A DNA stretch of 64,000 nt from Neocallimastix sp. 'constans' (taxonomy: Eukaryota). The position numbers and the translations under genes were made by a program. The stretch covers positions 186,001 through 250,000 of the forward strand of contig JBODTK010000153.1 in the NCBI GenBank assembly GCA_050613775.1, in the 5' to 3' direction. Under the pieces are notes generated by a model that was given only the letters and a program-made list of their open reading frames with translations, was not told where the DNA came from and did no database searches. Positions 1,083-52,966 of the stretch are shown one piece after another (the first letter of the stretch is position 1; each line of letters starts with the position of its first letter).

Positions 1083-1495
1083 TGTAACGGATCACAGAAA
1101 TAAATAATATATTTTAGTGTTTAATACTTATAATTTATAGCTAAGTTCGCGAGTTCGAATCCGAACATTTACCTTAAAAATTTTTATTATTTTTATTTAT
1201 TTATTATTATTAAAATATTTTAGTTTATAATTATTTGATTGGTTTAAATTATAAAAATTTAATTTATAAAAATTTAATTAATTTATTTAATTGAAAAAAA
1301 ATATTAATATCTCAAAAAATTTCATGTAAATTGAAAAATCGTGTTTTTATTAAAAAATTAATAATTAATAAATTATTATTTAACACCAACCTTTTGATTC
1401 AAGATTTGTGCTTAATAATAAGTTTTATTTTATTAGGTTATTAATTTAAATTCTTATTTCTTATTGTTAAGCACAGCTTTATAAATAGTGAAATT
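1083..1495 (+). repeat. Probable truncated 3' LTR of the upstream chromovirus
   Basis: Purine-rich AAGCGGGA then TGTAACGG at 1083; TATAAATAG near 1480; right end not seen (runs into Copia internal sequence), so the end coordinate is approximate. Confidence 0.5.

Positions 1496-1921: not shown

Positions 1922-1996
<75 letters not shown>
1915..1996 (+). repeat. (AAT)n microsatellite, left half of the tract split by Copia B
   Basis: Direct reading; encodes poly-Asn in the Copia A linker. Confidence 0.95.
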
Positions 1997-2273
1997 TGTT
2001 AATTACACTTTAGTTTTTATTTAAAAATATAGTTTTATTTATTTATTTGTTTACTTTATTTATTTATTTTAAAGACCATTTTTTTCTAATTCATAAATGG
2101 TTAGTACATTTTATATACTCAATCATGTGATTATTCATTTGTTACACAATAGAATTACATTACATATATTTATGTAGTCTACATTAATTTATAATAATTA
2201 ATTACATATAGTTATATTTATTTAATTCATTTACTTATATAATAACACTCCCCCCTCAAATTAGTTTGTTTTT

Positions 2274-4994
2274 TTATTTAAAAGAAAACTCGATTTGCGA
2301 ATTCTTTAATTTTGGTCTATTAACAGATTTAGTTAAAATGTCAGCTAGCATATTCTTTGGTTCAATATATTTTAGTTTAATAATGTTTTTAGATATATAG
2401 TCGTAGTTGAAATGATATTTGATTGAGATATGTTTTAATTTTGGATTTAGATTACCATTTTCCATAGATTTAATACTTGCAGTGTTATCTGAATAAATTG
2501 TAATTGGTCTTGAATATCTGAATAGTTCATATAAAATATTTTTAATCCATAAAATCTTTTTAATACAAATTGAAGTACTAATGTATTCGGCTTCAGCAGT
2601 AGAAGTAGCAACTATTGATTGCTTCTTAGACATCCAGCATATTGGGTTATTTCCCATGAGAATAATATATCCTGAAGTAGATTTCTTGTCCTTAATGTCA
2701 CCGGCAAAATCAGAATCTGAGTATCCTAAAATTTCTCCTGTTCCATTATAACTTAATTTATAATTTTTAGTACTATTTAAATATTTCATAATGTTTTTAA
2801 CTTTTACCCAATCAGAGACTGTCGGACTTTCTGAATTCCTTGCTGCTTTGTTAACTGCAAAGGCTATATCCGGTCTTGTACACTTAGATAGGAATATGAG
2901 CATTCCTATAGCACTTTTGTAAGTGGTTTCATCAAAGGCTTGTTTATTTTCAGAAATTTTATTATCTCCCACACATGGAGTACTGACTTTCTTTAAATTA
3001 TTTATATTAAATTTGTGTAAGATATTGTTTATAAAATGAATTTGAGATATTTTATAATTGAAATTATTGTTTTCAACTTTTATACCTAAAATGAAGTCTA
3101 TTGGTCCTGATTTTGATATTTTGAAATTGTTTTTAATTTTATTAATAATGCATTTAATTTCTTTTATTTCTCCCGTAATTACCATATCGTCAACATAAAG
3201 TCCAATTAAGCATACCAGTTTATTGTTGACGATTCTTTTAAATAAACATTTTTCTGAGGTTAATTGTTTGAAACCTTGATTAATTAAGAAACTAGAAATG
3301 GTGATATACCATTGTCTTCCGGATTGTTTCAAACCATATAATGCTTTGTTGAGCTTCCAGTATCCCCTCCCAAAGTTAGTATCTCCGGGTGGAATTGTAG
3401 TATAAATATCCTTATCAAGGTCAGCATTTAGATAAGCGGCTTTAATGTCTAATTGATGAATGGGCCAATGAAATTTTGCAGAAAGAGAGAAGATCAATTT
3501 TAAACAATCGATGTTGAGTGTAGGAGAGAAAGTAAGTTCAAAGTCTATGCCATATTTTTGATTGAAACCTCTGGCAACTAGTCTTGCTTTCCATTTAGTA
3601 ATGTTACCTTCACTATCAGACTTGCATGCAAAAACCCATCTGGTAGTAATGATGGTTTTACCTTTTGGAACAAATGGGACAAAAGTCATGATTTTATTGT
3701 TGTATAGATTGTCTAGTTCTTCAGCAATAGCATTTTCCCAGCGAGAGTGGTCCTTACAGGTAACAGCCTGGTGGAAACTAGAAGGGACTTTAAAATTAAT
3801 GTTACAAATGGTTTTAGTGTTAAAATTAATTTTTCTAAATTTATTAAATACTTTTTGAGAGGTTGGACTAAGTGGTCTTTTAGATCTGAAGGGGTGTTGA
3901 GCATTATAGTTATTATAATAAACATTATTAATATCACTGTTAAAAGGTTTAAAAATAATTTTATTATTTGAATCAGAAGAATTATTATTATGTAAATTTT
4001 TGTATAAATTTAATCTACTAAAAGTAAAATTTTTAATATTGAAATTTGGTAAATTATTGGAGACGTTTTGATTATTATCAATAATTAAATTTTTAACACT
4101 TCTTCTTTTATTAAAAATGGACTTTTTGTTTACATTTTGTTTATTTGAATTGTCTTTAATGTTTATTGTACTATTTTCATAAATATTATTATTATTATTA
4201 TTATTTAAATTATTGTCCGAATTATTATTTTGATTATTATTTATTTGTATATTATCATTTGTATTTTGTAATATATTATTAGAATTATAATCACTTATAT
4301 CAAATAATTTATTAATTTTAACATCTAAATTAGGTAAAAAATTATTGTTATTTGCATTATTGTTTATATTGAAATTTTTATTAGTATTGTCTTTATTTTC
4401 ATTATTTAATTTATTATTAATTAAAAGATTTTCATTATTTGATTTTTCATAGTTAATTATTGAGTTTTTATCATTTAATATATTATTTCGTGAAAAATTA
4501 TTATTATTTAATATATTGTTTGAAAAATTTTTGTTATTATTAAATGGGTTATTATTATTTAAGGTTTGATTAGAGTTCTGATTTATTAAATTTTTATCAA
4601 TTAAGGTTTGATTAGAATTTTGATTTATTGGATTATTATTAATTAAGGTTTGTTCAATTTTTGAATCAAAATTTGAAAAATTTTTATTAATAAAATTTTT
4701 TTCACGAAAATTTTCATTTTTATTTTCATAGTTATTTGATTTTTCTTTGAGTGTAGTGTTTTGTGTGTTAATATTGGTATTATTTTTATTAGAATTAGAC
4801 TCGTTTAAACTCTTCTTATTATCTATTTTCAAAGAGGTTTCAGAATTTATATTTATTTCTTCATCTTTATTATTAACATTGTCTTTAATATTAACGTCAG
4901 GATTATCACTTGATTTATCAGAAATTAAAATAATTTTTTCATTATTTAATTTCATTTTCATAATTTTCATAATTATTCTGAGTAAAATTATCAT
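2274..4994 (-). CDS. pol: Copia B Asn-rich linker, reverse transcriptase and RNase H (frameshifted from upstream ORF)
   Basis: WKARLVARGF, QLDIKAAYL, LYVDDMV, YSDSDFAG, STAEAEY, MLADILTK. Confidence 0.93.
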   Translation of the reverse strand: MIILLRIIMKIMKMKLNNEKIILISDKSSDNPDVNIKDNVNNKDEEININSETSLKIDNKKSLNESNSNKNNTNINTQNTTLKEKSNNYENKNENFREKNFINKNFSNFDSKIEQTLINNNPINQNSNQTLIDKNLINQNSNQTLNNNNPFNNNKNFSNNILNNNNFSRNNILNDKNSIINYEKSNNENLLINNKLNNENKDNTNKNFNINNNANNNNFLPNLDVKINKLFDISDYNSNNILQNTNDNIQINNNQNNNSDNNLNNNNNNNIYENSTINIKDNSNKQNVNKKSIFNKRRSVKNLIIDNNQNVSNNLPNFNIKNFTFSRLNLYKNLHNNNSSDSNNKIIFKPFNSDINNVYYNNYNAQHPFRSKRPLSPTSQKVFNKFRKINFNTKTICNINFKVPSSFHQAVTCKDHSRWENAIAEELDNLYNNKIMTFVPFVPKGKTIITTRWVFACKSDSEGNITKWKARLVARGFNQKYGIDFELTFSPTLNIDCLKLIFSLSAKFHWPIHQLDIKAAYLNADLDKDIYTTIPPGDTNFGRGYWKLNKALYGLKQSGRQWYITISSFLINQGFKQLTSEKCLFKRIVNNKLVCLIGLYVDDMVITGEIKEIKCIINKIKNNFKISKSGPIDFILGIKVENNNFNYKISQIHFINNILHKFNINNLKKVSTPCVGDNKISENKQAFDETTYKSAIGMLIFLSKCTRPDIAFAVNKAARNSESPTVSDWVKVKNIMKYLNSTKNYKLSYNGTGEILGYSDSDFAGDIKDKKSTSGYIILMGNNPICWMSKKQSIVATSTAEAEYISTSICIKKILWIKNILYELFRYSRPITIYSDNTASIKSMENGNLNPKLKHISIKYHFNYDYISKNIIKLKYIEPKNMLADILTKSVNRPKLKNSQIEFSFK

Positions 4995-7611
4995 TTAATT
5001 CTTGTTCATTACTATTCTTGTTTGTGAAATGAAAATCGAAATTAAGAAAATTTGGGTCATTAAATTCATTTTGGTGAGTATTGGGGAGTCTTAAACTTGA
5101 AGGAGTATCTTCTAGACAATATATTTCTCTCACATGGTGTATTTTATGATCTTCATAATCCATGATTATATAGCAATGTGAGTTTTGATTGAAACCAAGA
5201 AATATACCTTTTTTAGCGTTAGGAGAAAATTTTCCCTTATTTTGTGAAAAATCTTTATAGTAAGTAATGCATCCCCAAACTCTCAGATACTTGATATCTA
5301 CCTTTCTTTTATAATATATTTCGTCAGGAATCTTATTACCTATTCCACTATGAGGCATTTTGTTGTAAATGAGATTAGCATATGTAATTGCATAATCCCA
5401 TAAATTATCACTTGTTTTACTCCAAAAGATTAAAGTTTTAGTACTTGAAATAATAGTTTGATTAAAACGTTCTACTAGTCCATTATTTTCAGGATTATAG
5501 GGAGGTGAATATTCTTTACTAATACCATTTTCGCTGCAGAATTTTTTAATTCGAATATTGTCAAATTCTTTTCCATGATCTGATTTGAAAATTTTAATGT
5601 TATTCTTGTTTTGATTATTTAGAAATTTTAACGTATTTATAACGATGTCTATTGCCTCAGATTTTCTTTTTAAAAGAAATATCCAACTCTTTCTGCTATA
5701 TTCGTCTATAATAACTAGGATAAATCTATAACCATTTACAGATTTGTTTACAGGACCCATAATGTCTGAGTGGATTATTTCTATGGTATCGGAGGCTTTT
5801 GGTGTTTCTTTATTGTGTGGATTTCTTCTCATTTTTGCAATTTTACAATCATTACAAAAATTTTCATCCACATTATGTAACTTTAAGTATTTATTCAGGT
5901 CTTTTGTGTAGTAATGACCTAGCCGTCGATGCCAAATTATTTCTTTGGCACTTCGAAAATTTTGCATGGCCATTATATTATTGCTGTTTTCTATAGGTTC
6001 GTTATTTTTATGATTATAATGATTAGGTGGTATAGCTGTGATATTTATTTCATTTCTTTTGTTTGCCTGAAAAGTTGCAACGGTTTTGTAGTTTTCATCC
6101 AAAAGGCTCATGATTACTTCATTGTTTATTTCTTCAATGAGCACTTTTGTTCCTGTTCTGGCGAATTCAATACCACTAATCATATTTTTCGCAACGTCTT
6201 TTGAATACAGAACCCTTTTTAATTTAATATAGTGATTGTTGACCTTAAAATCATACTCGCCATATCCTTCGAAGTCGCAATATGTATTATTGGCACATTT
6301 TAAAGTAACTGGATCATTAATGAAATTCTTTAAAATGTTTTTATTATTAGTTATATGTTCTCCGGCTCCAGAATCATATAACCATTGTGTTTTTTCATCT
6401 TCGTTTATATGAAAAATATTATTTAATGAATTTAAATATTCTGTAACTCTAGGAACCTTAATTTCTGATTGTTTTGAATTAATACAACTATTATTGTTTA
6501 CTTTTTCTTCATTATTATTACTTAATTCATAAATTTTGTCACAGAAGTTTATTAAACAAGTTGATTTCATATTTTCACTAGTATTTTGATCATTAGATGT
6601 GGATGGTCTATCAAGATATGGTCTAATTTGGTCATAGTTTACTTCATAATTATATTCATTATTTAAATTAGCATCATTTACGTAACCAATATATCTCTTG
6701 CTGTTATATTTTTTATTTCTATTGTAATTTTCATTATTACCCTTTTTATTTTCATTATAGTATTTATTAAATTTGCTATTCGGGTTTTTCGGGTTAAAAT
6801 AGCATTCTTTTGTGTCATGATTATTCATGTCACAAATATAGCAATATTTATCTTTTTCTTCTTTACCCTTTTTGGTATTTCTCTCATGTTCTTTGTTATT
6901 GCTATCATATTTTTGTGTTTTATTAATTCTTCTATTTTGTTTTCCTTTACCTTTAAATTTTCCAGCGTAGTCGATATCCATTGGGTCATCATGAGTTTCT
7001 TCCTTAGTAGTGTTTCCCCAATTATTAAAGTAATTCCATAATTTCAAATCTTCTTTTATTTTATTATATAGACTATCAACTGTTATATCACTATCTAAGA
7101 TAAATTTTGATTTGTAGCTTGTTGGTAAAGCACGTAAGAAATATTTTACCTTTTCCTTTTCTTCCATGGGTGCTTTTGCCTCTTTCATATTACTGAAAAT
7201 TTTAATCATTTTCTTACAGGCAGTTGGTATTTCATTTTCGGTTCTTGCTTTTATTGTTGTGAGTTTATTAATTCATTGAGTAAGGTCATTGGCTTCACTG
7301 TTATATTCAGTTTTTAAAGATTCTATAATAGCTGAGGCTGCTTCAATGCCTATGATATCCTCATGGATTTTTGGAGTAATTGAATTTATTATAATTAAAC
7401 GTACTCTTTTGTTTTCTCGTTTAGCTTTCTTAATGGCCTCAATATTAGTTGGGTCATTATCATATAATTCTTGAACAACATCCTTTTCGAGATATTCTTC
7501 TAGCTCTAGTTGTTCAACAACAGTATTGATGGAATCATACCAGATTCGATAATTTGATCCATTTAAGAATTTATTACTGCTTATGATATTTTCATTATTA
7601 TTTATCGACAT
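4942..7611 (-). CDS. gag-pol: Copia B gag-protease-integrase with one in-frame TGA at 7273-7275
   Basis: CYICDMNNHDTKEC knuckle, WLYDSGA protease, WHRRLGH..CNDC, IIHSDIMGP, KSDHGKEF, NGLVERFN; ORFs 7273-7635 and 4942-7209 share a frame and the stop aligns with a Trp in Copia C; start approximate. Confidence 0.9.
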
Positions 7612-7634
7612 TTTTATATATATGTTGTGAGCCA

Positions 7635-7649
7635 CTGAGACTCTTAATC
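7635..7649 (-). promoter_or_regulatory. Primer binding site GATTAAGAGTCTCAG, complementary to the tRNA-Lys(CTT) anticodon arm
   Basis: Directly abuts the 5' LTR; plus strand TGAGACTCTTAATC matches the remembered eukaryotic tRNA-Lys(CTT) anticodon stem-loop; identical in Copia C. Confidence 0.8.
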
Positions 7650-7904
7650 TGTTAATTACACTTTAGTTTTTATTTAAAAATATAGTTTTATTTATTTATT
7701 TGTTTACTTTATTTATTTATTTTAAAGACCATTTTTTTCTAATTCATAAATGGTTAGTACATTTTATATACTCAATCATGTGATTATTCATTTGTTACAC
7801 AATAGAATTACATTACATATATTTATGTAGTTTACATTAATTTATAATAATTAATTACATATAGTTATAATATATTTATTTAATTCATTTACTTATATAA
7901 TAAC

Positions 7905-8012
<108 letters not shown>

Positions 8013-13300: not shown

Positions 13301-14640
13301 ATACAGAATGAACAAATAATACTAATTGTGCTAGAATAATATAAATTATTCTAACCTTATAGATTATTCTATTCTATATAATTGGAACTTTCCAATATTC
13401 TTCAAATATTACTAAATAGAAATCTTAAGTTAATAAATCACCAATTAAAATATAATTCCTTTTTGAATTATTGATCCGATTCCATTATAAAGTATTAAAA
13501 ATCTTTAGCCAAGAATATTGTCCTTGCCCACTTAATATATTAATATTATATTTCTTTTGTAATATGTTATATTGAAAATAATCAAATCTATTTAATTAGT
13601 TATTAAAATTTTCGTTATCAATTTAAATTTATTTTTAATTACTAAATTTAACTAAACCACAATTAAAATATTCTGTATAATTTCTTTATTTTTATTTTAT
13701 ATATATTAATATTAAACTATTATTAAATAATTAATAATTCAATAATATAATACTAATATTTATAACAATAATATTATTAACTAAAATAATAATTCAATTT
13801 CAATTTAAATGTTTTATTTATTAAAATAATTAGTAATTAGTTTATTAAGAAATAGTTAGGCTTTACAAATTTTAAATTGATAAAAAAATATAAATACATG
13901 TAATTTTTAGTGAAATAAAATATAATCAATAACTTACTTTTATTAAATAAATAATTATATCATTATTTTTCTTTTATAAATTTAAATAAATAAATAATGA
14001 TTTTAAAACAAATTATTTTTTTTTTATTGTAATTTAATTATTTGTGTTAATTATTATTATATTCCTAAAACTATATGAACCATACCAATTTGATAAATAA
14101 CAAAATTATTAAATTAAAATAAATAATAAAGAACAAATTCTTGTCTAACTTAACCCAAAAATTAATCCATTCTAAAAAAAATTAAATCCATATTAAAGAA
14201 AATTTAATTAAATAAAATAATTAAAATAAAATAATAATAAATTAATTAATCATTAATAATTTTAATTGAAAACTAAAATAAATTAATAAATAATATTTTT
14301 CTAAAACTACAAATAAACAAAATAATAAACAAATTTAATAAATTATAAATAACAAATAAACAAACTTATAAACATCTCAAAATTAAAATTAAATAATTAA
14401 ATAATTTTTAAGTTACTTTTATTTAAAATAATGATTATTTTATTTATTTTATAACTCAACTTTTATAAACAAATTGTAATTAAAATAACATTTTAAAACT
14501 CATCTTTATTAATATTTTAATTGTAAATATTGTTTAATTTAATAATAAATTATTCTTTATATCTCTTTTATTAATTTTATTATTTTTAATGTAAATAGTT
14601 TAAAATCAAAGAAAAATATAAAAACATGTAAATATTTCTT

Positions 14641-14878
14641 ATTAATTATTTAATAAATTATTATAGATATTTTATTATTTTTAATAATCAAAAAGTATGA
14701 TTATTAATTATTTAATAAATTATTATAGATATTTTATTAGTTTTAATAATCAAAAAGTATGATTATTAATTATTTAATAAATTATTATAGATATTTTATT
14801 AGTTTTAATAATCAAAAAGTATGATTATTAATTATTTAATAAATTATTATATATATTTTATTAGTTATTAATAATCAA
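14641..14878 (+). repeat. 62-bp tandem repeat, ~3.8 copies
   Basis: Units start at 14641, 14703, 14765 and 14827 (ATTAATTATTTAATAAATTATTATAGATAT...CAAAAAGTATGATT). Confidence 0.9.
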
Positions 14879-15911
14879 TTTTATTATTAAAATTTAAAAT
14901 AAATTTGTATAAATAATAAATATTTCATTTTATTATTTGTAAAATAAAATAATAGCTTAAGTCGGCGAGGACAGACTATAATTTATTTTACACTATTTTA
15001 TTTTATCAACACTATAATTAATTATTAAATAAAACACTAAAACTAAAAAACTAATTTAATTTTTTGTTTTATAAAAAAAATCCTTTTATTAATATTTCTT
15101 ATTTGTTGAATTTAACTATTCTAAAATCAACAATCACTTAACTGGGTACCGTAGGGTCCTTTACCGGAAAGCCTACTAGCAGTTAAGATTTTAAAATAAA
15201 ATTTAAAATAAAATTTGTTTTATAAAAGATAACTATTCTAATAATAGTTATAATACTAATTAATAAAATATAAAATTTGTACTATCTATCTTATCTATAA
15301 TATTTCCTATACTATTCTATTTTCTAACTAAACTATACTATTTTCTATACTATTTTCCAACTATCGTTCAATAGTTGAAAATTAACTCTTTTTATACTTT
15401 TTGAAAATTAAAATTTAAATTGAATAGATTGTAATAAACTAACTAAAATATTATTATATATTTGTAATTACATTTAATAATAAATTACATGAAATGTTAT
15501 GAATTATTTTAATATAAAAACTATTTAAAACTATCTAATATTTCTAAAAATAAATAAACAAAACGGCAAGTTTTTGTAAACAAACGGAAAAGGCAATTTT
15601 TCTTTGATTATTTTAATTTAACTAATTTATGACTAATTATTTTTAATTTACAAGTTTCATGACTAATTATTTTTAATTTACAAGTTTCATGATTCAAAGT
15701 GAGTAATAATGATGTAAATTCTCCAAATAATTTAGTCATACATTTTTGAGAAAATTAATTAAATTAATAATTTGGAATACATTTAAATTTATATTAAAAA
15801 TTTGGAAAACATTTTTATCCACAATAATTTACATTACATTACATTTAAATACGTATTCAAATTATTAAATATTTTACATGCCCCTCTGTTTAAGTCGAGC
15901 CCCTGAGCGAC

Positions 15912-18900
15912 TTATAATCTAGAAGGAACTCTATTTGTTTTATTGAACTCTTGAACTAATTGAGGATCAGTGATTTCATCTTCAGACAACCAAGTACATT
16001 CAGTAGCTGGAAGTCCTTTCCATAACATAAAGTAAAAAGGTTTATTGTTAACAACTTTAGCGGCAACAATCTTCAAAGGTTCCTTTCCTTCAGTATCAGT
16101 AGCGATCGAAGTAATTCGAGTATTAGTACTTGCACTTGATTCATTAAATTCTCTTTCATTGTAAGGTTCTAGATTTGAAATATGGAAAACATTATGGCAT
16201 TTAATAGTATCAGGTAATTCTAATTTATAAGAAACAGGGCCTGTTTTTTCAATAATTTTAAAAGGACCGAGTTTTCTGTTAGTCAATTTAGAAGGACCTT
16301 TTGGAAGTAAGTCTGGACGCTTTAACCAAACTTTATCACCTACTTTTAATTTTGGTCCTACAATTCTTAAGTGATCTGCATATCTCTTATATCTTTCCTT
16401 AGCTTTATCTAAATTTTTCTTGAGGAATTGCATGTTTTTCCTTATTTGTTCAACATGGTCAATGGTACTTGTTCTTCTGCTATCAGCAGGTATAACTGGA
16501 TTGAATTTTGGATAAAAACCATAATTTGAGAAGAATGGTGTCTGATTAGTCGATTGTTGTAATGTGTTATTATATGCGAATTCAGCATAAGGAAGAATGT
16601 CCATCCAGTTATTTTTTCTTTTGTTAATATAGCACCTTAAAAATTGTTCTAATATACCATTAACTCGTTCAGTTTGACCATCTGTTTGAGGGTGATGTGC
16701 TGTTGACAAATTTTGACGAATATCTAATAAACTACAAAGTCTTTGCCAGAATTCGGAGGTGAATTGAGATCCTCTATCGGAAGTAATATCTTCTGGTAAT
16801 CCGTGTAAACGAAAAACTTCTCTAAAAAATACATCAGCAGCGATTTGAGTGGTAGGTATACTCCTAAATGGAATAAAGTGAGCCATCTTTGTTAATCTAT
16901 CAACTACGACCATTATAACTGTTTTGTCTCTTGACTTAGGTAAATCAGTTATAAAATCCATTGAGACTGAGGACCATGGTCTTTTTGGAGTAGGAAGAGG
17001 TTGAAGTAATCCATAAGGACGGTGGCGATCATCTTTTACTTGAGCACATGTTTTGCATGATGCGATATACTTAACAATATCGGAAGTCATCTTAAACCAA
17101 ACAAAATTTCTACTTATAATTTCTTTGGTTTTGAGAATACCAAAATGACCTTGAACTGGATTATCATGATGAATAGCAATGATAATATTTCTCATCTTCT
17201 TTGGAACGAAAATTAAACCCTTATATAATAATAAACCTTCTTCGTCAATAGTAAAGTCTTTCATTTTATTTTTATATTTATTATTAGAAGTAGATTCTCC
17301 TTTTTTGATCTTGATTAATTCTTGTATGACTTCATCATCTTTAATTTCTTTTATCAATTCATCTTTTAAGTTCCCTTGAATTGCAACTAAACATAAATCT
17401 TCTGTAGCTTCTTGTATTGTAAGACAAGCTGAAGTTTCTTTTTCATCATCTATTTCTTGATTTTCATAATCTGGTCTTCTCGAAAAAGCATCTGGTTTTC
17501 CACCTTCTTTTCCTGGTCTATATTGTATTTTGTAATCAAATCGAGATAAGAATAAGTTCCATCTTATTTGACGTTGAGATAACAACTCAGGTTTACGTGG
17601 AAAAGTTAAATTTTTATGATCGGTATAAATTGTAAATTGATGCTTAGCCCCTTCTAAGTAATGTCTCCATTCTTGTAACGCACACTTGACAGCTAATAAT
17701 TCCTTGTCATATATTGGATAATTCTTTTCAGATTTTGTTAAACCTCTTGAATAATAACAAATTGGATGTAATGCGTTTGTATATTTTTGTCTTTGAGATA
17801 ACACAGCACCGATTGCAAAATTACTTGCATCTGTCTCTACTATAAACGGTAAATCCGGATCTGCATGAACAAGTATTGGCTCTTTTGTAAAGAGTTTCTT
17901 TAAAGTTTCGAATGCGGCAGAACATTCCTCAGTCCATTCATATTTAACATCTTTTCTTGTTAAGTTGTGTAACGGCTTAGCAATTTTAGCAAAGTTTGGG
18001 ATGAATCTTCGGTAGTAGTTGCATAAACCTATAAATGATTGTACTTCTTTGACTGTAGTTGGTATTGGCCATTCTAAGATAGACTTAACTTTATCCGGAT
18101 CCATGGAAATTCCTTGATTGGATATTACGTGCCCCAAGAATGTTGTTTTCTGGACTTCAAATTCACACTTACTTAATTTTGCATAAAGACCACTTTCTTG
18201 TAATTTCTTAAGTATTTTCTTAACATGTGTACGGTGTTCTTCTAATGTCTCAGAATAAATAAGTATATCATCGATATAGGCAAAAGCAAATTCATCTAAG
18301 TATTCTCCTAAAACGTCATTAATAAAGTGTTGGAAAGTTGCTGGAGCATTCTTCAAACCAAATGGCATAACAAGATATTCGAAATGACCATATCTTGTTC
18401 GAAATGCTGTTTTATATTCATCACCTTCACGTATTCTTACCAGGTTATAAGCTGATTTTAAATCTAACTTAGTAAAATACTTAGCTTCTCTCAATCTGTC
18501 AAAAAGCTCGGTGATTAAAGGGAGTGGATAGGAGTCCCTTATAGTATTTTCATTAAGTCTTCGATAATCGACACAGAGTCTTAAACTTCCATCCTTTTTT
18601 CTAACGAATAAAATTGGAGCACCAGCAGGAGATGTTGAAGGTCTAATGAAGCCTTTTTCTAAATTTTCTTTGATATATTCTTTTAAAGCTTCACGTTCTT
18701 CTTCCGTTAATGGATATAATGGTCCATAAAATAAGTCTACATCATCCTTTAATCTAATTTTACAGTCGTATGGACGGTGTGGTGGTAATTCGTTACACTC
18801 TTGTTCATCAAACACATTTTTGAATTTCTCATATTGTTTTGGTATTCTTTCCAAACTTTTATTTTCTTTAACACTTTCATTATTATAATCACATTTAATA

Positions 18901-20480
18901 ACACTTTTATCTTTATTTTCATTTTTTAAAACATAACAGAAAGCATAATTTTCAAATTTTCCTTTATTTAATTCTTTTCTTTTAATACATTTTTCTTTTT
19001 TAACTAAGGCTTTTTTCATAATAGCCTTTATATTACGTGATTTTTTACTACATAATTTATTTTTATTATCGACTAATTTTTTAACATCATTATTATCTAA
19101 ACTATCTAATACATTATTATAATTATTAATAATTTCTCTAGCTAATTGTATCTTACTTCGGCGGATTTCATCTTTTTTCTTCTTTTCTTCAGTTGTTCTT
19201 CTCATAATATCTTCAGCGGTGGCACAACAATTTCTCTTGCAGTATTGGGAACTGAATCTGATATTACCTTTATCAAATTCAATTGTTGGGCAATGCTTCT
19301 TCAACCATGGATTTCCTAAAATAACCGAAATTCCTTTTGGTAAACTATAAATGTAAAATTGAATGGTTTCGATATGTTGACCCATGACCATAGTTAATGG
19401 AATGGTTTCATAACGAATTGTTCCATTTCCGTTAAATCCGATAACGTTTTTCTCATGGCGGATTCGTTGTACTGGGATCTGGTATTTATCGGCGGTAGCT
19501 CTATCCATAATATTAAGATCTGAGCCAGTATCTAGAATTGCGGACATAATAAAACCATTTTTGTACTTAAAAACAACATTGTAAGTGTGAGCTAAACTTT
19601 TCTCGCTCAATTTAATCTGTAAGATCTTTTCTCTTCTTCTAATTTTGTCCTGTTGCTTGGGACAGTTTTCCTTTAAGTGACTTGTGCTCTTACATATAAA
19701 ACACTTCTTCGGTTTGTTTGACCTCTTTGGTGAAGAATCCCTGTAATTTTGGCTACTTCGGTAATTATTTTGGTAACGACTTGATCCTAAGTCCCTACGA
19801 AAAGGTCTAATTCTTCTTTGATCTATATCCATTGGGTCATTTCCATTAACACGACGATCTTCTTCAGCATTAGCAGCTACAACATTAATTAGTTCATTAA
19901 TTCTTCTAATTCTAGGATAAATTAGTTTGGTTCTTTCTTTTTCTCTTGTTGGTAAACCCTCAATGAAAAAATGGATTTTAGCTTCGTCATTAAATGATGA
20001 ATCTCTGGCTATTTTCTCGAACTGATTGCAGTATTCGGCTATTGTTCTAAATTGTTGGCTACGTATCTTGGTAAGTCGACTGTTCGCGACATCTGAACTC
20101 GCACAGGATTTGTAACGTTGTTGCAAAGCGTCAATAAAATTCTCGTAATTTTCCAATAGTGGACTTTCTTCTTTAACTAGATCAGCAAACCATTCAGCAG
20201 CGTTTCCCTCCAAATAACTACTTATGATATCAATCTTGAATTCGTCATCAGCAGCAGCTTCTTCGTCTAAATTGTACTTAAAATATCGGTTGATTTGACC
20301 AAGGAAGGCTGGTAGTTCGTTTCTTCTTCCGGAGAATGCTTTTGGTTTCGGAATGAGGCGTGCCCTGGTATTGACGTTATTACCAACCTCATTTTCTATT
20401 TCCATGGAGCTGGCTTCAGAGGCTGCGTCAAAGTCTCCCCTAGCTCCTGGATGTTGATTGTTGATATTTATGTAATTCAT
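15912..20480 (-). CDS. gag-pol: Gag-Pol polyprotein (gag, CCHC, protease, RT, RNase H, integrase, chromodomain-like C-terminus)
   Basis: PKPKAFSG, CFICKSTSHLKENC, ILDTGS, LRLCVDYR, AYIDDILIY, VETDAS, SMDFITDLP, QTDGQTER, YFMLWKGLPATECTWL; first ATG taken as the start (MNYIN). Confidence 0.95.
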   Translation of the reverse strand: MNYININNQHPGARGDFDAASEASSMEIENEVGNNVNTRARLIPKPKAFSGRRNELPAFLGQINRYFKYNLDEEAAADDEFKIDIISSYLEGNAAEWFADLVKEESPLLENYENFIDALQQRYKSCASSDVANSRLTKIRSQQFRTIAEYCNQFEKIARDSSFNDEAKIHFFIEGLPTREKERTKLIYPRIRRINELINVVAANAEEDRRVNGNDPMDIDQRRIRPFRRDLGSSRYQNNYRSSQNYRDSSPKRSNKPKKCFICKSTSHLKENCPKQQDKIRRREKILQIKLSEKSLAHTYNVVFKYKNGFIMSAILDTGSDLNIMDRATADKYQIPVQRIRHEKNVIGFNGNGTIRYETIPLTMVMGQHIETIQFYIYSLPKGISVILGNPWLKKHCPTIEFDKGNIRFSSQYCKRNCCATAEDIMRRTTEEKKKKDEIRRSKIQLAREIINNYNNVLDSLDNNDVKKLVDNKNKLCSKKSRNIKAIMKKALVKKEKCIKRKELNKGKFENYAFCYVLKNENKDKSVIKCDYNNESVKENKSLERIPKQYEKFKNVFDEQECNELPPHRPYDCKIRLKDDVDLFYGPLYPLTEEEREALKEYIKENLEKGFIRPSTSPAGAPILFVRKKDGSLRLCVDYRRLNENTIRDSYPLPLITELFDRLREAKYFTKLDLKSAYNLVRIREGDEYKTAFRTRYGHFEYLVMPFGLKNAPATFQHFINDVLGEYLDEFAFAYIDDILIYSETLEEHRTHVKKILKKLQESGLYAKLSKCEFEVQKTTFLGHVISNQGISMDPDKVKSILEWPIPTTVKEVQSFIGLCNYYRRFIPNFAKIAKPLHNLTRKDVKYEWTEECSAAFETLKKLFTKEPILVHADPDLPFIVETDASNFAIGAVLSQRQKYTNALHPICYYSRGLTKSEKNYPIYDKELLAVKCALQEWRHYLEGAKHQFTIYTDHKNLTFPRKPELLSQRQIRWNLFLSRFDYKIQYRPGKEGGKPDAFSRRPDYENQEIDDEKETSACLTIQEATEDLCLVAIQGNLKDELIKEIKDDEVIQELIKIKKGESTSNNKYKNKMKDFTIDEEGLLLYKGLIFVPKKMRNIIIAIHHDNPVQGHFGILKTKEIISRNFVWFKMTSDIVKYIASCKTCAQVKDDRHRPYGLLQPLPTPKRPWSSVSMDFITDLPKSRDKTVIMVVVDRLTKMAHFIPFRSIPTTQIAADVFFREVFRLHGLPEDITSDRGSQFTSEFWQRLCSLLDIRQNLSTAHHPQTDGQTERVNGILEQFLRCYINKRKNNWMDILPYAEFAYNNTLQQSTNQTPFFSNYGFYPKFNPVIPADSRRTSTIDHVEQIRKNMQFLKKNLDKAKERYKRYADHLRIVGPKLKVGDKVWLKRPDLLPKGPSKLTNRKLGPFKIIEKTGPVSYKLELPDTIKCHNVFHISNLEPYNEREFNESSASTNTRITSIATDTEGKEPLKIVAAKVVNNKPFYFMLWKGLPATECTWLSEDEITDPQLVQEFNKTNRVPSRL

Positions 20481-20625
20481 CTTATTATTATTATTTATTA
20501 AACTATAAATTAAACTATAAAGTATTACTAAATCCACTTTTTAATTATTATTTCAAAAAAAAAAAAAAAATTTTTATACTATTACTAGTCTATCCTACAC
20601 AAAGGTAAACTATACTAATCTAAGG

Positions 20626-20636
20626 AGTTGGAAAAT
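20626..20636 (-). promoter_or_regulatory. Self-priming-type PBS ATTTTCCAACT
   Basis: Abuts the 5' LTR; 11-nt perfect complement at 21051-21061 inside the LTR, ~30 nt downstream of a minus-strand TATAAAA (21089-21095). Confidence 0.8.
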
Positions 20637-21607
20637 TGTAAAATAAAATAATAGCTTAAGTCGGCGAGGACAGACTATAATTTATTTTACACTATTTTAT
20701 TTTATCAACACTATAATTAATTATTAAATAAAACACTAAAACTAAAAAACTAATTTAATTTTTTGTTTTATAAAAAAAATCCTTTTATTAATATTTCTTA
20801 TTTGTTGAATTTAACTATTCTAAAATCAACAATCACTTAACTGGGTACCGTAGGGTCCTTTACCGGAAAGCCTACTAGCAGTTAAGATTTTAAAATAAAA
20901 TTTAAAATAAAATTTGTTTTATAAAAGATAACTATTCTAATAATAGTTATAATACTAATTAATAAAATATAAAATTTGTACTATCTATCTTATCTATAAT
21001 ATTTCCTATACTATTCTATTTTCTAACTAAACTATACTATTTTCTATACTATTTTCCAACTATCGTTCAATAGTTGAAAATTAACTCTTTTTATACTTTT
21101 TGAAAATTAAAATTTAAATTGAATAGATTGTAATAAACTAACTAAAATATTATTAAATATTTGTAATTACATTTAATAATAAATTACATGAAATGTTATG
21201 AATTATTTTAATATAAAAACTATTTAAAACTATCTAATATTTCTAAAAATAAATAAACAAAACGGCAAGTTTTTGTAAACAAACGGAAAAGGCAATTTTT
21301 CTTTGATTATTTTAATTTAACTAATTTATGACTAATTATTTTTAATTTACAAGTTTCATGACTAATTATTTTTAATTTACAAGTTTCATGATTCAAAGTG
21401 AGTAATAATGATGTAAATTCTCCAAATAATTTAGTCATACATTTTTGAGAAAATTAATTAAATTAATAATTTGGAATACATTTAAATTTATATTAAAAAT
21501 TTGGAAAACATTTTTATCCACAATAATTTACATTACATTACATTTAAATACGTATTCAAATTATTAAATATTTTACATTATTTTATTAGTTTTAACAATT
21601 ATTTTAT

Positions 21608-21682
21608 GCCATGTTGGTCCAGTCGGTTAGGACGATACAGGTCACTGTAGAGGGCGGGGTTCGAATCCTCGGCATGGCACCA
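21608..21682 (+). pseudogene. tRNA(Asp/Glu)-like SINE head with A and B boxes, defective anticodon arm and encoded CCA
   Basis: Acceptor GCCATGT/GCATGGC, D arm GTCC-AGTCGGTTA-GGAC, T loop GGTTCGAATCC; the loop around GTC is too short for a canonical tRNA. Confidence 0.75.
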
Positions 21683-22055
21683 AATAATCGGATGAGGTTT
21701 CTATCCTGGGATATCATGAGACCACACGTGATGTCCATAAGGCTTTCCCTCAGATGATTATTTCACCCAACCCTGATACTACGCTTTGAATTGAAGCATA
21801 GACCTTGATGATTGTAAAATTTCCAATCGCCAATGATTACACCCACTAGGGAGGAGTTAATGGTTCCATTCTGATGCTCGTGGTCATTAGAGATATATGT
21901 AGGAACGTTAGGAATGCATCTCCGGGCAGTGTGTAACGACGATTGAGAGCGGCGAAGCTGATACAGTATGCCAATAACTCATCACCTTACAGTTAATTAA
22001 TAACTGTATGGCCATATGGGAGATGGGTACCCATATGTGCAAGTCTATGTTTTTT
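21608..22055 (+). mobile_element. tRNA-derived SINE, full-length copy
   Basis: tRNA-like head 21608-21682, ~370-bp GC-richer body, short T tail; TSD TAACAATTATTTTAT at 21593-21607 and 22056-22070; second copy at 27701-28107. Confidence 0.9.
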
Positions 22056-24085
22056 TAACAATTATTTTATTAATTTAAACAAAATTAATTATTAAATAAA
22101 TAAAGATTAATATTAAAATAAAAATAAATTTTTTTTAATAAAACATTTTTGTGTTTAATAATAAAACATATTTATTTTTTTTAAATTTCTTAAATCTATT
22201 TTATTCAGTATTTATCCTTTTATTCACTTCTACAAAATTTAATTTTTGTAGATTAAGAATATCAGGTATAAATCAAATTTTGATCCGGAATTAGCTTATT
22301 TACTTCAAATAAGCATATATAAAATGATAAAAAGAAAAAAAATATAAAATGGTTATAATAATGAAATTATTTAAAATTAAAATAGTTATAATAAAAAAAA
22401 AATTATTTATAATAAAATTATTTATAATAAAAATAATTATCTATAAATTGCTTTTAATAAATAAATACAGAAATATTTAATTCTGTATAAAATTAAATCG
22501 ATTGGCAATACTAACTATTATTTTTATTGTTTTCTCTAAAATAGATTATTATTTTCTGTATTCTTTTTACAATAATAAACTTTATGAGAATATGATATTA
22601 ATAATTTACAAGAATATTAAATTATATATTAATTGATAAATTAAAATATTATTAGAATAGATAGTTATTTTAAATATAAATAAATCATTAATAATTATAC
22701 AACTATATTTTAAAATAGATACTTTAGAATAGGTTAATTTTAAAATATATTAATATTAAAATAACATTCATAATAGAATAATATAAATAAATTTATAATT
22801 TATATTTTAATGATCAATTCAAGATTCATGTAAAAAATAACTATAAAAGGAAGAAATTTTCTTTCTTTTGAAAAAGGGATGACAATAAAATAAAATAAAA
22901 ATTTATAAAATACTTTTAAACTAATAAAAATTTATTTATTTAATATTGTGTTTTTAAAATATTGTGTGTGATCTGTGCCCATATCAATTTTAGGATTCGT
23001 TACAGTTAATATCAAACCTATTTTTCTTTAACGAATCAACTCCAATTAGAATGTCGAAAAGGTCATCTTTTTCAATTACTCTAAAATGATCTTGGAAAGT
23101 CTTGTCTCCTATAGTTACTTCTAGATCATATATTTCGGATTCAATCGTCGGGTTTGAACAAGCTTGAAAAATAGTTTCTGAGATTCTTCCCATGGCAGGT
23201 TTGTTTATATTATATTTTTCTAAAGCAAATCTTGTAATAGCATTAACACTAGCGCAAGTATCTAAAAATATCTCACAATTGGTATTTTCAACTTTTCCTT
23301 TTACTTTAATTATTTTAAATTTATTAACTATTGTCATTACATTATTAATAGCATTACTTTTAGGAGTAAGCTTCAAAGCTTTACTAAATGCTATTCTGAA
23401 TTTTGGGAATAGATCAAGTAAGTATCCTAATTTAGTAATAACTTCATTAGATGCAACTTCTTTTAATAGATCTTGTATTAAATAATCATCAAATTGTTCT
23501 ATTAATTTAATATGTTTTTTTTTAGATTCTTTGTTGTTACTTTACGAAGGTGGAGATTTCTTTGTATTTTCAATAATATCTTTAATTCTTTCTTCATGGT
23601 TGTTTCTTTTACTCGATCTAATATTCTTCTCAGCTATAATTGAAGGATCTAAGTACTCCAATTTTTCGGTTTGATTACTATTAAAGGTAGTTTTATTATT
23701 TTTATCTAAAGAAGTATTCTTATCTATGGTATTTGTAAACTTATTTTATTAATTTCATTATTTGGTATACCATTTTCAATATCATCTTTAATCATAATTA
23801 CATCTTCAATTGGTAAAGTATAAGTTTCCACATTTTGATTCTTTTGGTTATGCTCCTTTTTTCCTTAATCAAGACAAGCATCATATTTGTTGTTATGACT
23901 CATAACTACTGTTTGAATCGGCGTCGGATTATTCTTTAATGTATCATTGGATTTCTCTTAATTATAAGGAATGGATCTTACGTTTTTTTCTTTTTTTTTC
24001 TGACAGCTGGTGCAAGAACTTCAATTAGTTTATTAATACGTAAAGGTTGATAATTTGATATTGATTTATTATGGTTATTCATATT

Positions 24086-24118: not shown

Positions 24119-27100
24119 ATTGTTACTATTATTATTACTATTTCTATTATTATGATAACAATTATTATCATTGTCTTCCATGGGGTTGGTTTGTTTACTA
24201 GAAGTTATCCTTCTCCCATTTAGTGGTTTAAAGATTTGTTGATCATTCCCCTTTCTTCCATTTCCGCTAATTTTTTGAACGAATAGGGGCAGTTTGAAGC
24301 CTTGTGCCCATATTGGAAACAACGGAAACAAGTAGTTTTCCTATTTTGGTAGTCTTTATTAAAATTTTTATTATATTCCTATTTGGAATAACCTCTGGAT
24401 TTCTACTTATGGTGGTTGTAAGTATATTAGCATCAATACCGTATTTATTGTCATATACGTTACTATTTTGAGAAACTGCAGTAGATATATTGTTGGTATT
24501 GTTATCGTTATTGATATTATTGTTTTTATAATTGTAATTAGAGTTATTACTATTTTGCATTCTATTAGGTAAATAATTATAATTATAGTTGTTATCCATG
24601 ATATTATTCATATTTTGATTGACGTTAGTATTATAATTACTATTGAGATTCATAAATCTCGAACTATTACTAAAGTTTCTGTTGTTCCTTCTAAAAGGTA
24701 GACGAAAATTATTATTGTAAATATTTCTATTGGTACTTTGATTTATATTATGTTGATAAGAAGGTTCTTCATAAAAATTCTGATAGAATGGATGGTTCAT
24801 TATAGGGCTATCCAAATTTTGCACAAACATTAAATTAGATCTATTCTTATTATTATCTTGCCCAATATTAATGATTATTTCTTTTTCAGCTTCTTCGGAT
24901 ATTTCAGCTACCTTAAAAGCTTCAGATAAAGTTTCACATTCGGTTGTAATAACTCTTTAACAAGGAAAGACCCGTGTACTTATAGCAGTAGTATAGTCCT
25001 TTATTGAAATTAGTTTTTGATATTCTCTTGGTAGGCCTTTGTATAATATTTTGTATCTATAATTAAATATTTTTATAGTTTCTTTATTATTAATTTTTAA
25101 TAATTTTAATACTGCACATTTATCATTAGGTGTGATGTGCAAGTACTCCTCAACGGCAGCTTGGATTTCTTTAAAGTTGGGATATCTAACTTCGTTTCCA
25201 TTCTTACTTTTTAAAGAGTTTTAGCCCCCATGCATGTCTTCTTCGACTGCTTCTTTGGCCCAAACAAAAATTCTTCTTGGTTCCACAACATCGTAGAGCT
25301 CCATCACTCTGACGAATTCATGCATCCATCCATCAACATCTTTTCCATAGTCGATGAGATTTGGTAATGCTTTCTGTAATTTGGCAGCGTTAATCATAAT
25401 AAATAGAATTTATAAAAGAAGTAATATAAAATAGTTATTTATTTATAATATAATAATTGTTTTGTAAAAAAAATGAAGAAATAAAAAAGAATTGTTTTAT
25501 AATAATATAATAAATGCTTTTGTACTATAAATATATAAAATAAAAAAAATGAATGAATTAAAGTATAGTAATTTCTCTTATTATTTTCATATTATTTTAT
25601 CTTGCTTCCGCCCGGATTCTCCACCAATTTTGATACGATATTTTTATATATTGTACCTTTTATATGATTTGGGAAAGCAAGTTGTAAAATTATAAAATAA
25701 TATATTCTAATAAAAGAAATAAATAAAAAAAATTATAACACAAAATTAATAATAAAGTTTTAATGAATAATTGTTAAGAAGTAGACAGATTGAATTTAAT
25801 GACGGAATCAGGTTGATATATCTATATAATATAACTATATAGATATAAATAAATTACTAAAATAAAAGAGTTATAAAGTTAAATTTGTTAATTTAACACT
25901 TAATTAAAACTAATAATTGGTTTGGTATGATAAAAAAATTTTATTTATTAATAAGAAAAATATAGTTATATTATAATAGGTTAACTATAACCTTACAAAG
26001 AACAAAAAGATAAATTTGAATTTTCTTTTTATACTTTGTAAGTTTGAGAATATTGATAATAATAATATAAAGTTGATAATAATAATATATAGTATAAGAA
26101 TATGTTTAATATAAATAAATTATATTTTTTAATCTAATATATTAGCTAATATATATAATATAATATTAAATTTAAATATTTAATATAGTAATTGATAATT
26201 AATAATTAATTAAATCAATATAACATAAATTAATACATAAACATTAATTTATGAATCAAGGATGACATGACCAAATGATTCATGTTGAATAAATATTTTA
26301 TTTATTAATAATATTTAAGTTTAATATGATATCATTAGAATCAGTAGGCCTAAGCTGGTCCTAAGATGATCAAATAACTTATAATATTATAAAATAAATA
26401 AAATTTAAAGAATAATTAATGAATTATAAATTTTTATTAATTATTTTGTTATTAATAATTTAATTGAAATTAATTGAAATTGAAATTTAATTCAGTTGTA
26501 ATTTCAACAATATGTTAAAGCTTTTAGATAATTTGGTCTTAACGATTAGGTCAAGTGCCAAATTATAGTAATTTATTAATTTATAACTTAAATTTACTCT
26601 TATTTAAAACATTATTGTTATTAGTAAATTTTAAATTTACTCTTATTTAAACATATTGTTATTAGTAAATTTTATAATTAAGTTTTTATTTAAAATATAA
26701 ATTTTATTTAATCTTAATAATATTTTATTACATTATTATTTTATATAATTATTTACTATAATTTAAATTACAATAATCCTACAAAGGATTAATCAAAAGA
26801 TTTAAACATGTATTTATATAAAATAATTAATTATTAAAATATTAATTTTTAATATGAATATGTAATAGTATTAATATAAGTTTGATATTGATAATATAAA
26901 CTAAGATAATAATATAAATATTTAATATAAATAAAATATTAGAATATAATATTTGCTAAATATTATATTTTATAATTAAAATATAATATGTAGAAATTAA
27001 TTTAATGACAATCACGTGTTTACATTATTGATATGCGGGACTTTTATGTGCTACTAATTTTTAATAGTATCGTTATATTTAATTAACCTTTATTAATATA

Positions 27101-27700
27101 TTTTAATTTAAAAACCCAATTAACCAAGGGTCTTCTCTAAACTACAATCAAGAAGAGTAGTTATTAGGAATCTTTATAATAATTTAATTATTAATAATAA
27201 TAAATATACATTTAAAATATATTATATCGGAGTATAGTATAATATAATAAATATACATTAAAATAATAAATATAATAAATATAACTATATAATTCTTAAA
27301 ATGAAAATAAGAATAATAAAGTTAAATATATAAGAATATAATTATATAATAAATATGAATATAATAAATAATATCAACTATATATATTTAATTATAATTA
27401 AAATAACTAAAACCATTTCATTATATATATATTATAATATATAGAAGTATTATGTATTTTTAATATAAATTTTAAAATAAACATGAATAGTTAAGTTATA
27501 TATATAATATTCTTATTATATATATTTAGAAGAAATTAACTATTTAATTTAATATATTTAATATATTTCATATTATAATGAATAATATATATATGAATAT
27601 TGAATAATATATGAATTAGAAATTATTTCAAATATTATTATTGACAAAATAGATATAAATTTAATATTTAATAATTATTATTAAATATACAAATATGTTA

Positions 27701-28107
27701 AAACATAGACTTGCACATATGGGTACCCATCTCCCATATGGCCATACAGTTATTAATTAACTGTAAGGTGATGAGTTATTGGCATACTGTATCAGCTTCG
27801 CCGCTCTCAATCGTCATTACACACTGCCCGGAGATGCATTCCTAACGTTCCTACATATATCTCTAATGACCACGAGCATCAGAATGGAACCATTAACTCC
27901 TCCCTAGTGGGTGTAATCATTGGCGATTGGAAATTTTACAATCATCAAGGTCTATGCTTCAATTCAAAGCGTAGTATCAGGGTTGGGTGAAATAATCATC
28001 TGAGGGAAAGCCTTATGGACATCACGTGTGGTCTCATGATATCCCAGGATAGAAACCTCATCCGATTATTTGGTGCCATGCCGAGGATTCGAATCCCGCC
28101 CTCTACA
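27701..28107 (-). mobile_element. 5'-truncated second SINE copy inserted in the Gypsy F 3' LTR
   Basis: Reverse complement of ~21646-22052 with two substitutions seen; TSD TATACAAATATGTTA at 27686-27700 and 28108-28122; empty site visible in the other LTR at ~34890-34910. Confidence 0.93.
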
Positions 28108-28730
28108 TATACAAATATGTTACTACACATATTTGTTTTATACTTTTATATCAGAAATGCCCTCGCTAAAATAGCTGATTACTGGTGAAATTGAAATTTA
28201 TCTCTATACGAGAACAATTCTCAATTGAATCTGTAAATTAGCTACAAATTCAATAATAAGTTGAAATGATCATAGTTCAAATAAGGAAAAATATAAAATT
28301 AAAAGAAATTTTATATTTTTGTGAATAATTATTAAAATATGTATTAATAAAAATTAATTGTATTATTTGAAAATTTTATAAAATTTTTAACTCAATTTTT
28401 GAAAATTTTTCATTAATAAAAAAAATTTTTTTTTTTTAAAATAATTATATATAATTTTGATATTATAATAATTAATATATATAATTATTAATAATTAATT
28501 TTGAATTTTAATTTGGAAATTTATTTTGAAATTTTGAAATTTCAATTTCGAAAATTTAAAAATAAAATTAATTATGAAATATATATAAGTTAAATGTCCT
28601 ATTAGCATAAATATGAATAATATTTTGCTATTTTAACAGTAAATATTAAAATGAATTGCTGAAATTTAAATTCAAAATTTTGAAATTTATTATTATTTAT
28701 TATATTTTTTTATTTATAATTGATTTTTAC

Positions 28731-34023: not shown

Positions 34024-35665
34024 TACTAATCTCTTATTTTATTTTAAATTTTTTTTTCTATTATGAAATAATTTATTATTCTACTCTTTTATTTTGTTAT
34101 TGCTAACTCTACTTTATTAATATTATATACAAATAATTATTATCCTATATTTGGAATAATTATATTATTATTTTTTTTTTTTTTATCAAATATTTTTTTG
34201 TATAATTATTATTATTATTCAACTAAAATATTATTACTAAACAATTATAACTAATCCTATTTTAATAATTTTAATATAAAGGAAAATTAAAGACTTGTTC
34301 GTTTTTATTCTGGTCCGAATTCCCAGTTGTTTCTAATTATATATCCTTTTAATAATTTAAATTAGTTTTGTGTTATTTAATGATTTATTATTATTAATTA
34401 TAACCAATCTCAGCTCAATAACCAATTATAAAAAAAAACAAAATATAATATTTAATATGTATAATTAATCCTCAAATTTATTTTTTTTTAAAACAATATA
34501 ACAACACTATTGCACATCCCCGATATCTCCACCAATTTTTGATATGCGGGACTTTTATGTGCAATAATTTATAAGCAGTGGGTTTTAAATAATGGTAGTT
34601 TAGTAAATTTTATTAATAAAATTATAATATTCGTACAATTAAAAATAATAATTCTAATTCCTAAAATTTTACAAGAGAGTTCTCTATTTCTAGTATAAAT
34701 AATTTAATCTATTCATAAGAAATAGGTAATATATTAATTATATATTCTAATATATAGAAATATATAAATTTTATATGAAATAAAGTATTATAATTATTAT
34801 AATTATAATAATATATATTGAAAAAAAATAAAATAAAATAATTATTATCAAAAAAATTTAAATTTAATATTTAATAATTAATATTAAATATACAAATATG
34901 TTACTACACATATTTGTTTTATATCATTATTTAATATATATTAATTTCAATATGTTAATAATATTTAGTAATTAGTTGGCCTAGACTAATTCCTAAATAT
35001 TTTAATAAAGTTAATTTAATAATAATTATTATATTATTATTTTTTAATATTGAAATTCAAATAACTGAATTATTGAAATTGAAATTGAAATTGAATTGAA
35101 ATTCAGTTATTATCTTAACACAATAGTTGTAAAGGTTTTTGAGGTAGTAGGTAAGATTCTTGCTATATCTTTCCTAGTTTGGATTAAATTAGTCAGGTCA
35201 AGATGTTTTTTATTAATTATAACAATTAATTAAATTTAAATAATAAATAACACACACAGAGTTTTACAATTAAGATTTCAATATTTAAGATTTATGTTTT
35301 ATTAGAACTTTATTTAATATATATTTTAATAGTAAATTTTAACTAATATTAATACAAAAAATTATTTATTGTTATAATTGATTCATTAACTTTAAGTTAA
35401 CACATTAAATTAATAATCTTACAAAGAATTCAAAATATAGAATTTCAAATCCTTTTTATACTAAACTAAAATAATAATTAACAATATAATTAATTAATAC
35501 ATTTTAATCTTAATATATTCATACATGTATATAAACTATATAAAATATAATAATAAAATAATATTGATAAGAATCTTTTAATAAAATAACTATATAACTT
35601 ATTCATAAAACAATTTAATAATAAAACTAATTTAATAATAAAATATAAAATAAAATAAAATAAAA

Positions 35666-52111: not shown

Positions 52112-52572
<461 letters not shown>

Positions 52573-52906: not shown

Positions 52907-52966
52907 TTGACTCATATCATTTATTATTAAAAGTACTTAATTAATTCGCTTCACCGCTCCGAAATC

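Follow-up and report, generated by a model that had tools for sequence, protein, structure and literature searches.

Locus and features

The window, by which we mean the whole 64-kb stretch of DNA that was analysed, has a GC content of 22%, and Ty3/gypsy and copia LTR retrotransposons are clustered across it. Within it lies an element of 442 nt (21608-22049, 45% GC) followed by a T run, which is probably a young T-tailed tRNA-SINE of a host that probably belongs to Neocallimastigomycota. A second, inverted copy lies at 27700-28107 and was recovered even though the window-wide repeat search was dominated by (AAT)n arrays. The features are as follows (X1 to X19 denote public sequencing runs).

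14938-21577, minus strand: young intact Ty3/gypsy chromovirus with a 1542-aa frame, LTRs with 1 mismatch in 943 and the TSD TTATT
21590-21607, plus strand: 5' TSD of copy 1, TTTTAACAATTATTTTAT, with TAG directly before it
21608-21682, plus strand: tRNA-like head (ARAGORN, Rfam)
21682-21763, plus strand: long interrupted hairpin 3' of the head, helix pair probability 0.95-1.00
21793-21803, plus strand: predicted long-range stem, 5' arm, pairing with 22043-22053
21831-21912, plus strand: central core common to relatives, about 90% identity in contigs of X6, X12 and X18
21988-22008, plus strand: 3' hairpin 1, TACAGTTA/TAACTGTA, pair probability 0.98
22013-22037, plus strand: 3' hairpin 2, CATATGGG/CCCATATG, pair probability 0.98
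22050-22056, plus strand: T7 run, 3 T non-target and 4 T common with the TSD
22053-22070, plus strand: 3' TSD of copy 1
27685-27700, minus strand: 3' TSD of copy 2
27700-28107, minus strand: copy 2, with 38 nt missing at its 5' end, a T4 tail and 1 nt of microhomology where the 5' end joins the target
28107-28122, minus strand: 5' TSD of copy 2, TAACATATTTGTATAT, with TAG directly before it
34888-34903, minus strand: empty paralogous site for copy 2; the 16-mer occurs once, within an old Ty3 element, in its probable 5' LTR

SINEBase describes SINEs as interspersed, non-tandem and non-coding elements shorter than 1 kb. The present element has 442 nt plus the tail, its longest stop-free frame is 71 codons, the two window copies have different flanks, and two further copies lie in the metagenome loci L003 and L004. 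The body past the tRNA part comprises 367 nt, so that, by the SINEBase distinction, the element is more than a plain tRNA pseudogene. We regard it as an addition to an established kind of element, not as a new kind.

Insertion marks of the two copies

Direct repeats bracket both copies, an 18-mer in the case of copy 1 and a 16-mer in that of copy 2; the leading T of each TSD overlaps the tail, which places the TSD length at 14-18 for copy 1 and 14-16 for copy 2. None of 49,500 random AT-rich flank pairs gave a repeat of at least 15. In each window copy, three T of the tail are not target-derived and the remainder overlap the TSD. Copy 2 lacks the first 38 nt and hence the A box, and of its two differences from copy 1, G21659A and C21937T, the former falls in the B box.

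Copy 2 was inserted into an old, broken Ty3 element, 31 bp from the edge of what is probably its 3' LTR (27029-28153); the LTR that is probably its 5' one (34540-34926) holds the empty site, with 35 identical bp around it. The target duplication at copy 2 is therefore proven by an empty paralogous site within the window itself. Elsewhere the LTR pair has diverged to 76% over 176 bp and is unequal in length, so the insertion of copy 2 is much younger than its host Ty3. For copy 1, six joints in the DNA run X1 skip 461-471 bases (each joint seen in a single contig, with 20-28 nt on either side), and these joints fit empty copies of the repeat that hosts copy 1. Both window copies thus bear signs of retroposition, among TSD, simple tail and 5' truncation, and one of them has an empty site.

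These results bear out the first-pass annotation, which had described a tRNA-headed retroposon that was recently mobile, generates TSDs and can be 5'-truncated; its truncated second copy with about two differing sites and a TSD of its own proved to have exactly 2 differences in 408 positions and a 16-bp TSD. The element it delimited is real, although the start given at 21593 cuts the TSD of copy 1, which begins at 21590.

In both targets, TAG is followed by one to four T and then AACA, the form predicted for a U tail that primes on A residues of the target, as in plant Au SINEs. The pattern TAG-T(n)-AACA occurs seven times on the two strands of the window, three of these at the sites described here, and we take a target preference as a lead only, drawn post hoc from two events. 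The repeat into which both SINE copy 1 and the young Ty3 are inserted includes a 62-bp tandem repeat (14639-14878, 3.9 copies, 98%), whose unit nearly matches the target of copy 1.

The tRNA-like head

ARAGORN called the first 75 nt as a tRNA of undefined type (tRNA-???), and the Rfam tRNA model RF00005 matched with 38 bits (E 2.8e-6, gathering 29), covering all 71 model positions. The SINEBase measure of a tRNA relation is 60% identity over 60 nt; the head was compared here with the tRNA model as a family rather than with a particular host tRNA. Both promoter boxes are intact (A box 21615-21625, B box 21658-21668). The anticodon loop has 6 nt (GGTCAC) and is one base short; its GTC would correspond to Asp. 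The CCA encoded at 21680-21682 after the discriminator is present in all four copies seen, and descent from a mature tRNA is a reasonable reading of it.

A bacterial or phage source of the CCA-bearing head was also considered and gained no support in a weak test, in which phages gave one 20-nt match and five bacterial genomes no long match. The head pattern had no match in prokaryote genomes, all 15 matches of the core pattern in those genomes were unrelated to the SINE, and the SINE had no match in viral contigs. Among the LTR elements of the window, none has a primer-binding site complementary to the 3' end of the head.

Predicted fold and the shared core

The SINE body gave four chance-level matches against Rfam 15 (best 15.2 bits against a gathering cut-off of 47) and no match to the SRP, RNase P/MRP, snoRNA and telomerase models at E 10, and crude motif scans of the SINE for known structured ncRNA families were negative. 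A whole-window Rfam scan at gathering cut-offs yielded nothing, its fast filters overlooking the tRNA-like head too. In line with the unique body described in the first-pass annotation, it matches no Rfam family and no LTR-element part of the window.

The two terminal hairpins reported earlier were recovered by folding, and the 3' 77-nt piece that was folded has a z of -2.34 (2 of 200 shuffles equally stable). The hairpin after the head (21682-21763) reached a z of -2.93 (0 of 200 shuffles); of three common variants within it, two preserve the pair and the third is unpaired. A predicted long-range stem of 11 pairs (21793-21803/22043-22053, P 0.95; 13 of 1000 shuffles equally stable) would take in four U of the SINE tail, enclose a 3' domain of 260 nt and bury the 3' end of the RNA. 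The entire SINE has an unremarkable fold (z -1.39; 8 of 100 shuffles equally stable), and its middle pieces are not unusually stable (z 0.0 and +1.86). Of 10 variant positions compared with the predicted fold, four are unpaired, four preserve and two break a pair. T7 is the only run of at least four T on the sense strand of the SINE, the absence of an internal T4 being a weak signal, as 1,600 of 10,000 shuffles likewise have none.

Contigs of X6, X12 and X18 show the core identity of about 90% over 21831-21912 and then continue differently; some of them additionally match near 21697-21717. Related families thus have a common core and exchange their 3' part, in the modular organisation that is a SINE pattern (PMC3531059, available text), with the core seen in relatives as contig pieces of 34-82 nt. 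Some core-sharing contigs are 590-720 nt long, and sister families may therefore be longer.

Copies and variants in public data

A metagenome scan with the 3' 19-mer gave seven loci, namely L003, L004 and five unrelated short matches. L003 holds a full-length copy (815-1264, minus strand) with three differences and TAGT at the 5' junction; no TSD was found around it, and L003 may be either a candidate source locus or a mis-join of short reads. A TATA-like stretch is seen in L003 about 45 bp upstream of the SINE copy. The copy in L004, with one difference, is cut by the contig end. A T run opens that contig, which is connected to the SINE via an A run behind a gene; it is probably a transcript mis-join, and was set aside as evidence on the tail and flank. 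The four SINE copies seen are 99% identical. Position 21868 is A in both window copies and G in L003, L004 and about 99% of the run depth, so the strain or sub-lineage of the window differs from the sources of the runs.

Of 24 listed public runs, 20 (17 studies; 6 recorded as RNA) contain 0.90-0.95 of 39 sampled SINE words, and the holders include animal faeces metatranscriptomes. Of the 24 runs, 7 were used for contig comparison, X1 in two rounds. On a stretch of 112 bp, a pair of DNA runs from the same sample gave 1,245 (X1) and 433 different contigs. X1 shows seven variants of at least 5% within the SINE, and variants lie at 5-33% of the depth. The summed depth in DNA is of the same order on the SINE (3-7e4) and on the adjacent LTR (1-2e4), contig depth from runs not being equal to copy number. 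The simple reading of the contig counts, the variants and a summed depth like that of neighbouring repeats suggests many genomic copies with a subfamily structure. Longer T runs occur in DNA contigs (27 in X1, median 12; 2 in X13, median 21) and may reflect T-rich targets or slippage.

RNA signal

In the faecal RNA run X6, the summed depth is 6e4 to 8e5 over 21624-22055 against 0-55 on the adjacent LTR, and single contigs have a depth of 25,000 on the SINE against 7 on the adjacent LTR, where the contig has no difference from the window. The variants C21643T and G21753A are at about one third of the depth in X6. The faecal RNA run X12 has one contig over 21606-22056 at a depth of 1,236 against 0-11 on the adjacent LTR, and this contig extends about 970 nt upstream into other sequence. 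Depth in contigs reflects expression poorly, and contigs carry no strand, start or polymerase. An AT-rich flank bin (22092-22127) is also high in the RNA runs (5,906 in X6 and 3,070 in X12). In X19, one RNA contig of 462 nt spans about the entire SINE by its coordinates and is SINE-sized, close to the transcript of about 450 nt for which the earlier annotation proposed a test. X18 has diverged pieces only, although the index counts it as a holder, and X17 gave no contigs; as records may be dropped in the comparison, neither result counts as absence.

The contrast in depth between SINE and LTR in the RNA runs, set against their similar depth in DNA, speaks for RNA rather than carried-over DNA. 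The SINE is likely to be strongly transcribed, as a putative Pol III product on the basis of its sequence.

Putative partner LINE and the tail

The first-pass annotation had regarded the hairpins as the probable signal for a partner LINE absent from the window. The latter point agrees with our scan, as no LINE endonuclease or ORF was found in the 25 scanned of the 56 window ORFs of at least 100 aa. The former found no backing in a limited search: with 21945-22056 at an identity of at least 80% against contigs of X1 and X13 (DNA) and X19 (RNA), no LINE-like contig sharing this region appeared among the 12 of 40 loose ends listed, all 12 being indel variants of the SINE itself or its T tails; the share that continues into unlike sequence was 0. 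None of the seven loci of the 19-mer scan is a LINE. According to the available text of PMC6007223, the tails of Au-like SINEs differ from those of RTEs by 0.135-0.362, and since the difference can reach 0.36, a cut-off of 80% can miss a partner LINE.

At both window sites the 3' end is a T run and the TSD begins with T. Of these two sites only, an RTE-type T-stretch near -10 is present at site 1 (T4 at -6 to -9) and absent at site 2. The SINE TSD lengths, 14-18 and 14-16, overlap both the RTE (7-15 bp) and the L1 (7-18) ranges given in the same source. By its tail and first TSD base the helper LINE may be RTE-like, an L1-like alternative being also compatible, and we leave the SINE outside an assignment to the Au-like, RTE-related family. 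An enzyme that reads poly(A) would not readily account for a passenger with a T tail.

Proposed mechanism and alternatives

We consider it probable that we are dealing with a young retroposon that has a tRNA-like head and is transcribed, and that it is likely a SINE made by Pol III and copied by a borrowed LINE enzyme, its short U tail being predicted to prime on target A residues. CCA acts as an anti-determinant of tRNase Z. Pol III would start from the internal A and B boxes and give a single RNA of about 450 nt that stops at the terminal T run; the encoded CCA and the short anticodon loop would shield the head from tRNA processing and use, leaving a stable RNA, and the long-range terminal stem would protect its 3' end. 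ORF2 of an APE-type LINE would nick the bottom strand beside an A run, with which the U tail would pair for target-primed reverse transcription to begin. We propose this route because of the TSDs of about 15-18 bp, the 5' truncation, the empty site and the form TAG-T(n)-AACA of both targets. An early stop of reverse transcription would leave truncated copies like copy 2. Three tail T together with the target T would recreate a stop of at least T4 at the new site, so that full-length copies could be used again as sources.

A narrower form of this reading, to which we give somewhat less than even chances and which is contained in the preferred one, holds that a LINE with the same hairpin-bearing 3' end exists and that its tail is too diverged, short or rare to see. 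The two strong 3' hairpins speak for it, as does the end of the core at 21912, which leaves a family-specific 3' part of 140 nt like a LINE-derived module; the Au SINE/RTE tail differences cited above can exceed what the 80% cut-off admits. The loose ends listed for X1, X13 and X19 and the 19-mer scan, with its two SINE copies and five unrelated matches, weigh on the other side. A further alternative is that the sequence is an abundant structured ncRNA which the host maintains and makes from a single source gene or a few of them, the dispersed copies being retro-pseudogenes, analogous to rodent BC1 RNA and ID elements. It would account for the very high RNA-run depth restricted to the SINE extent, the single dominant contig in X12 and X19, the full-length L003 without TSD, the predicted closed 260-nt 3' domain and the core conserved among related sequences. 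It sits less well with the several variants in the RNA run X6, though X6 may mix strains, with two of six paired variant positions disrupting the predicted pair, with the replaced 3' part in related sequences and with the lack of a match to the Rfam models named above, and L003 may be a short-read mis-join; on balance we regard it as unlikely.

Carriage of both copies by LTR elements or by duplication at the DNA level might be considered, as both lie in or beside LTR-element sequence. The separate TSDs, the different flanks, the 5' truncation and a body that matches no LTR element within the window point elsewhere, and the empty site in the partner LTR largely refutes this reading, which we hold to be extremely improbable. 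The preferred reading of a Pol III-made, LINE-copied SINE can also be extended: the SINE gene might be at once a host RNP component, among the most abundant RNAs of gut fungi, and an active SINE source, with U-tail priming at TAG-T(n)-AACA that needs no common LINE tail and with a Pol III promoter that draws the chromovirus to 30 bp upstream. This extension is unlikely.

Relation to known elements

The T-rich tail is present as first annotated, but its unusualness was overstated, since 26 of 61 grass SINE families end in poly-T (PMC5585668, available text). As described in the accessible part of PMC6007223, plant Au-like SINEs are mobilised by RTE-clade LINEs, end in T and have TSDs that start with T. 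The present element resembles them in its tRNA head, 3' hairpin, short T-run end, T-first TSD and tail/target overlap. It differs in being three times longer, in its two 3' hairpins and predicted long-range terminal stem, in having the -10 T-stretch at one of two sites, in TSDs at or above the usual RTE 7-15 bp, in its fungal host and in that no RTE partner was found at an identity of at least 80% in contigs of X1, X13 and X19.

From the available text of PMC5063351, the ascomycete tRNA-SINEs include MgSINE (472 bp, about 100 copies), Foxy, SINE2-1_BG and AfuSINE2. Compared by description, they share with the window element the fungal host, the tRNA-derived head and the TSDs; its length is near that of MgSINE, and a CCA closes the tRNA region as in AfuSINE2. 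They all belong to Dikarya, however, and AfuSINE2 is described there as low-copy and without a cloverleaf fold, whereas the window head is mostly cloverleaf. As in the CORE-type SINE superfamilies of SINEBase (PMC3531059, available text), a middle block is common to sequences with different 3' ends, although the block is known here from contig pieces of 34-82 nt alone.

We found no description of a SINE in anaerobic gut fungi in the literature, Repbase, Dfam and most subscription journals lying outside the search. What is unusual here, within a known kind of SINE, is the strength of the RNA signal and the question of the partner. A young family in an early-diverging phylum could serve for strain-level insertion markers and for a strong native Pol III cassette in fungi lacking genetic tools (PMC8561657, available text), and it offers a test case for the priming of a U-ended RNA by a LINE enzyme.

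Neighbouring elements

A gap of 30 bp separates the end of the chromovirus 5' LTR from the head of copy 1 downstream of it, a position like that of the Ty3/gypsy elements that target tRNA genes, such as yeast Ty3 and Dictyostelium DGLT-A, which inserts 13-33 bp upstream of tRNA genes (PMC5006619, available text). Unlike DGLT-A as described there, the window Ty3 has a chromodomain, and it represents a single event. The chance of such a spacing is about 0.4% with at least eight LTR ends in 64 kb, for one event noticed post hoc in a nest of elements, and targeting of Pol III genes by the chromovirus is possible. The relatives of its protein are mostly unnamed metagenome proteins (best 75%); one named gut-fungus protein, from Pecoramyces, has 53%, and other named eukaryote matches have 39-47%, except one with 59% over 58% of the query. 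Together with the AT richness of the window and the animal faeces metatranscriptomes among the runs that contain the SINE, these relatives point to an anaerobic gut fungus (Neocallimastigomycota) as the probable host. No relatives were found among viral contigs. Two close relatives, P0026 and P0121, are assigned to metagenome bins of bacteria and archaea and probably come from fungal contigs within prokaryote bins.

Both copia elements with LTR pairs (1993-7905 and 52572-58936) are embedded in long (AAT)n/(TAT)n arrays that border them on either side, which suggests a copia lineage that targets microsatellites. Finally, frames of 424 and 341 aa lie between LTR elements at 45216-48806 (minus strand), with one weak YfbR-like match (E 7.5e-4) and no Pfam family that convinces, and are possibly an unclassified element.
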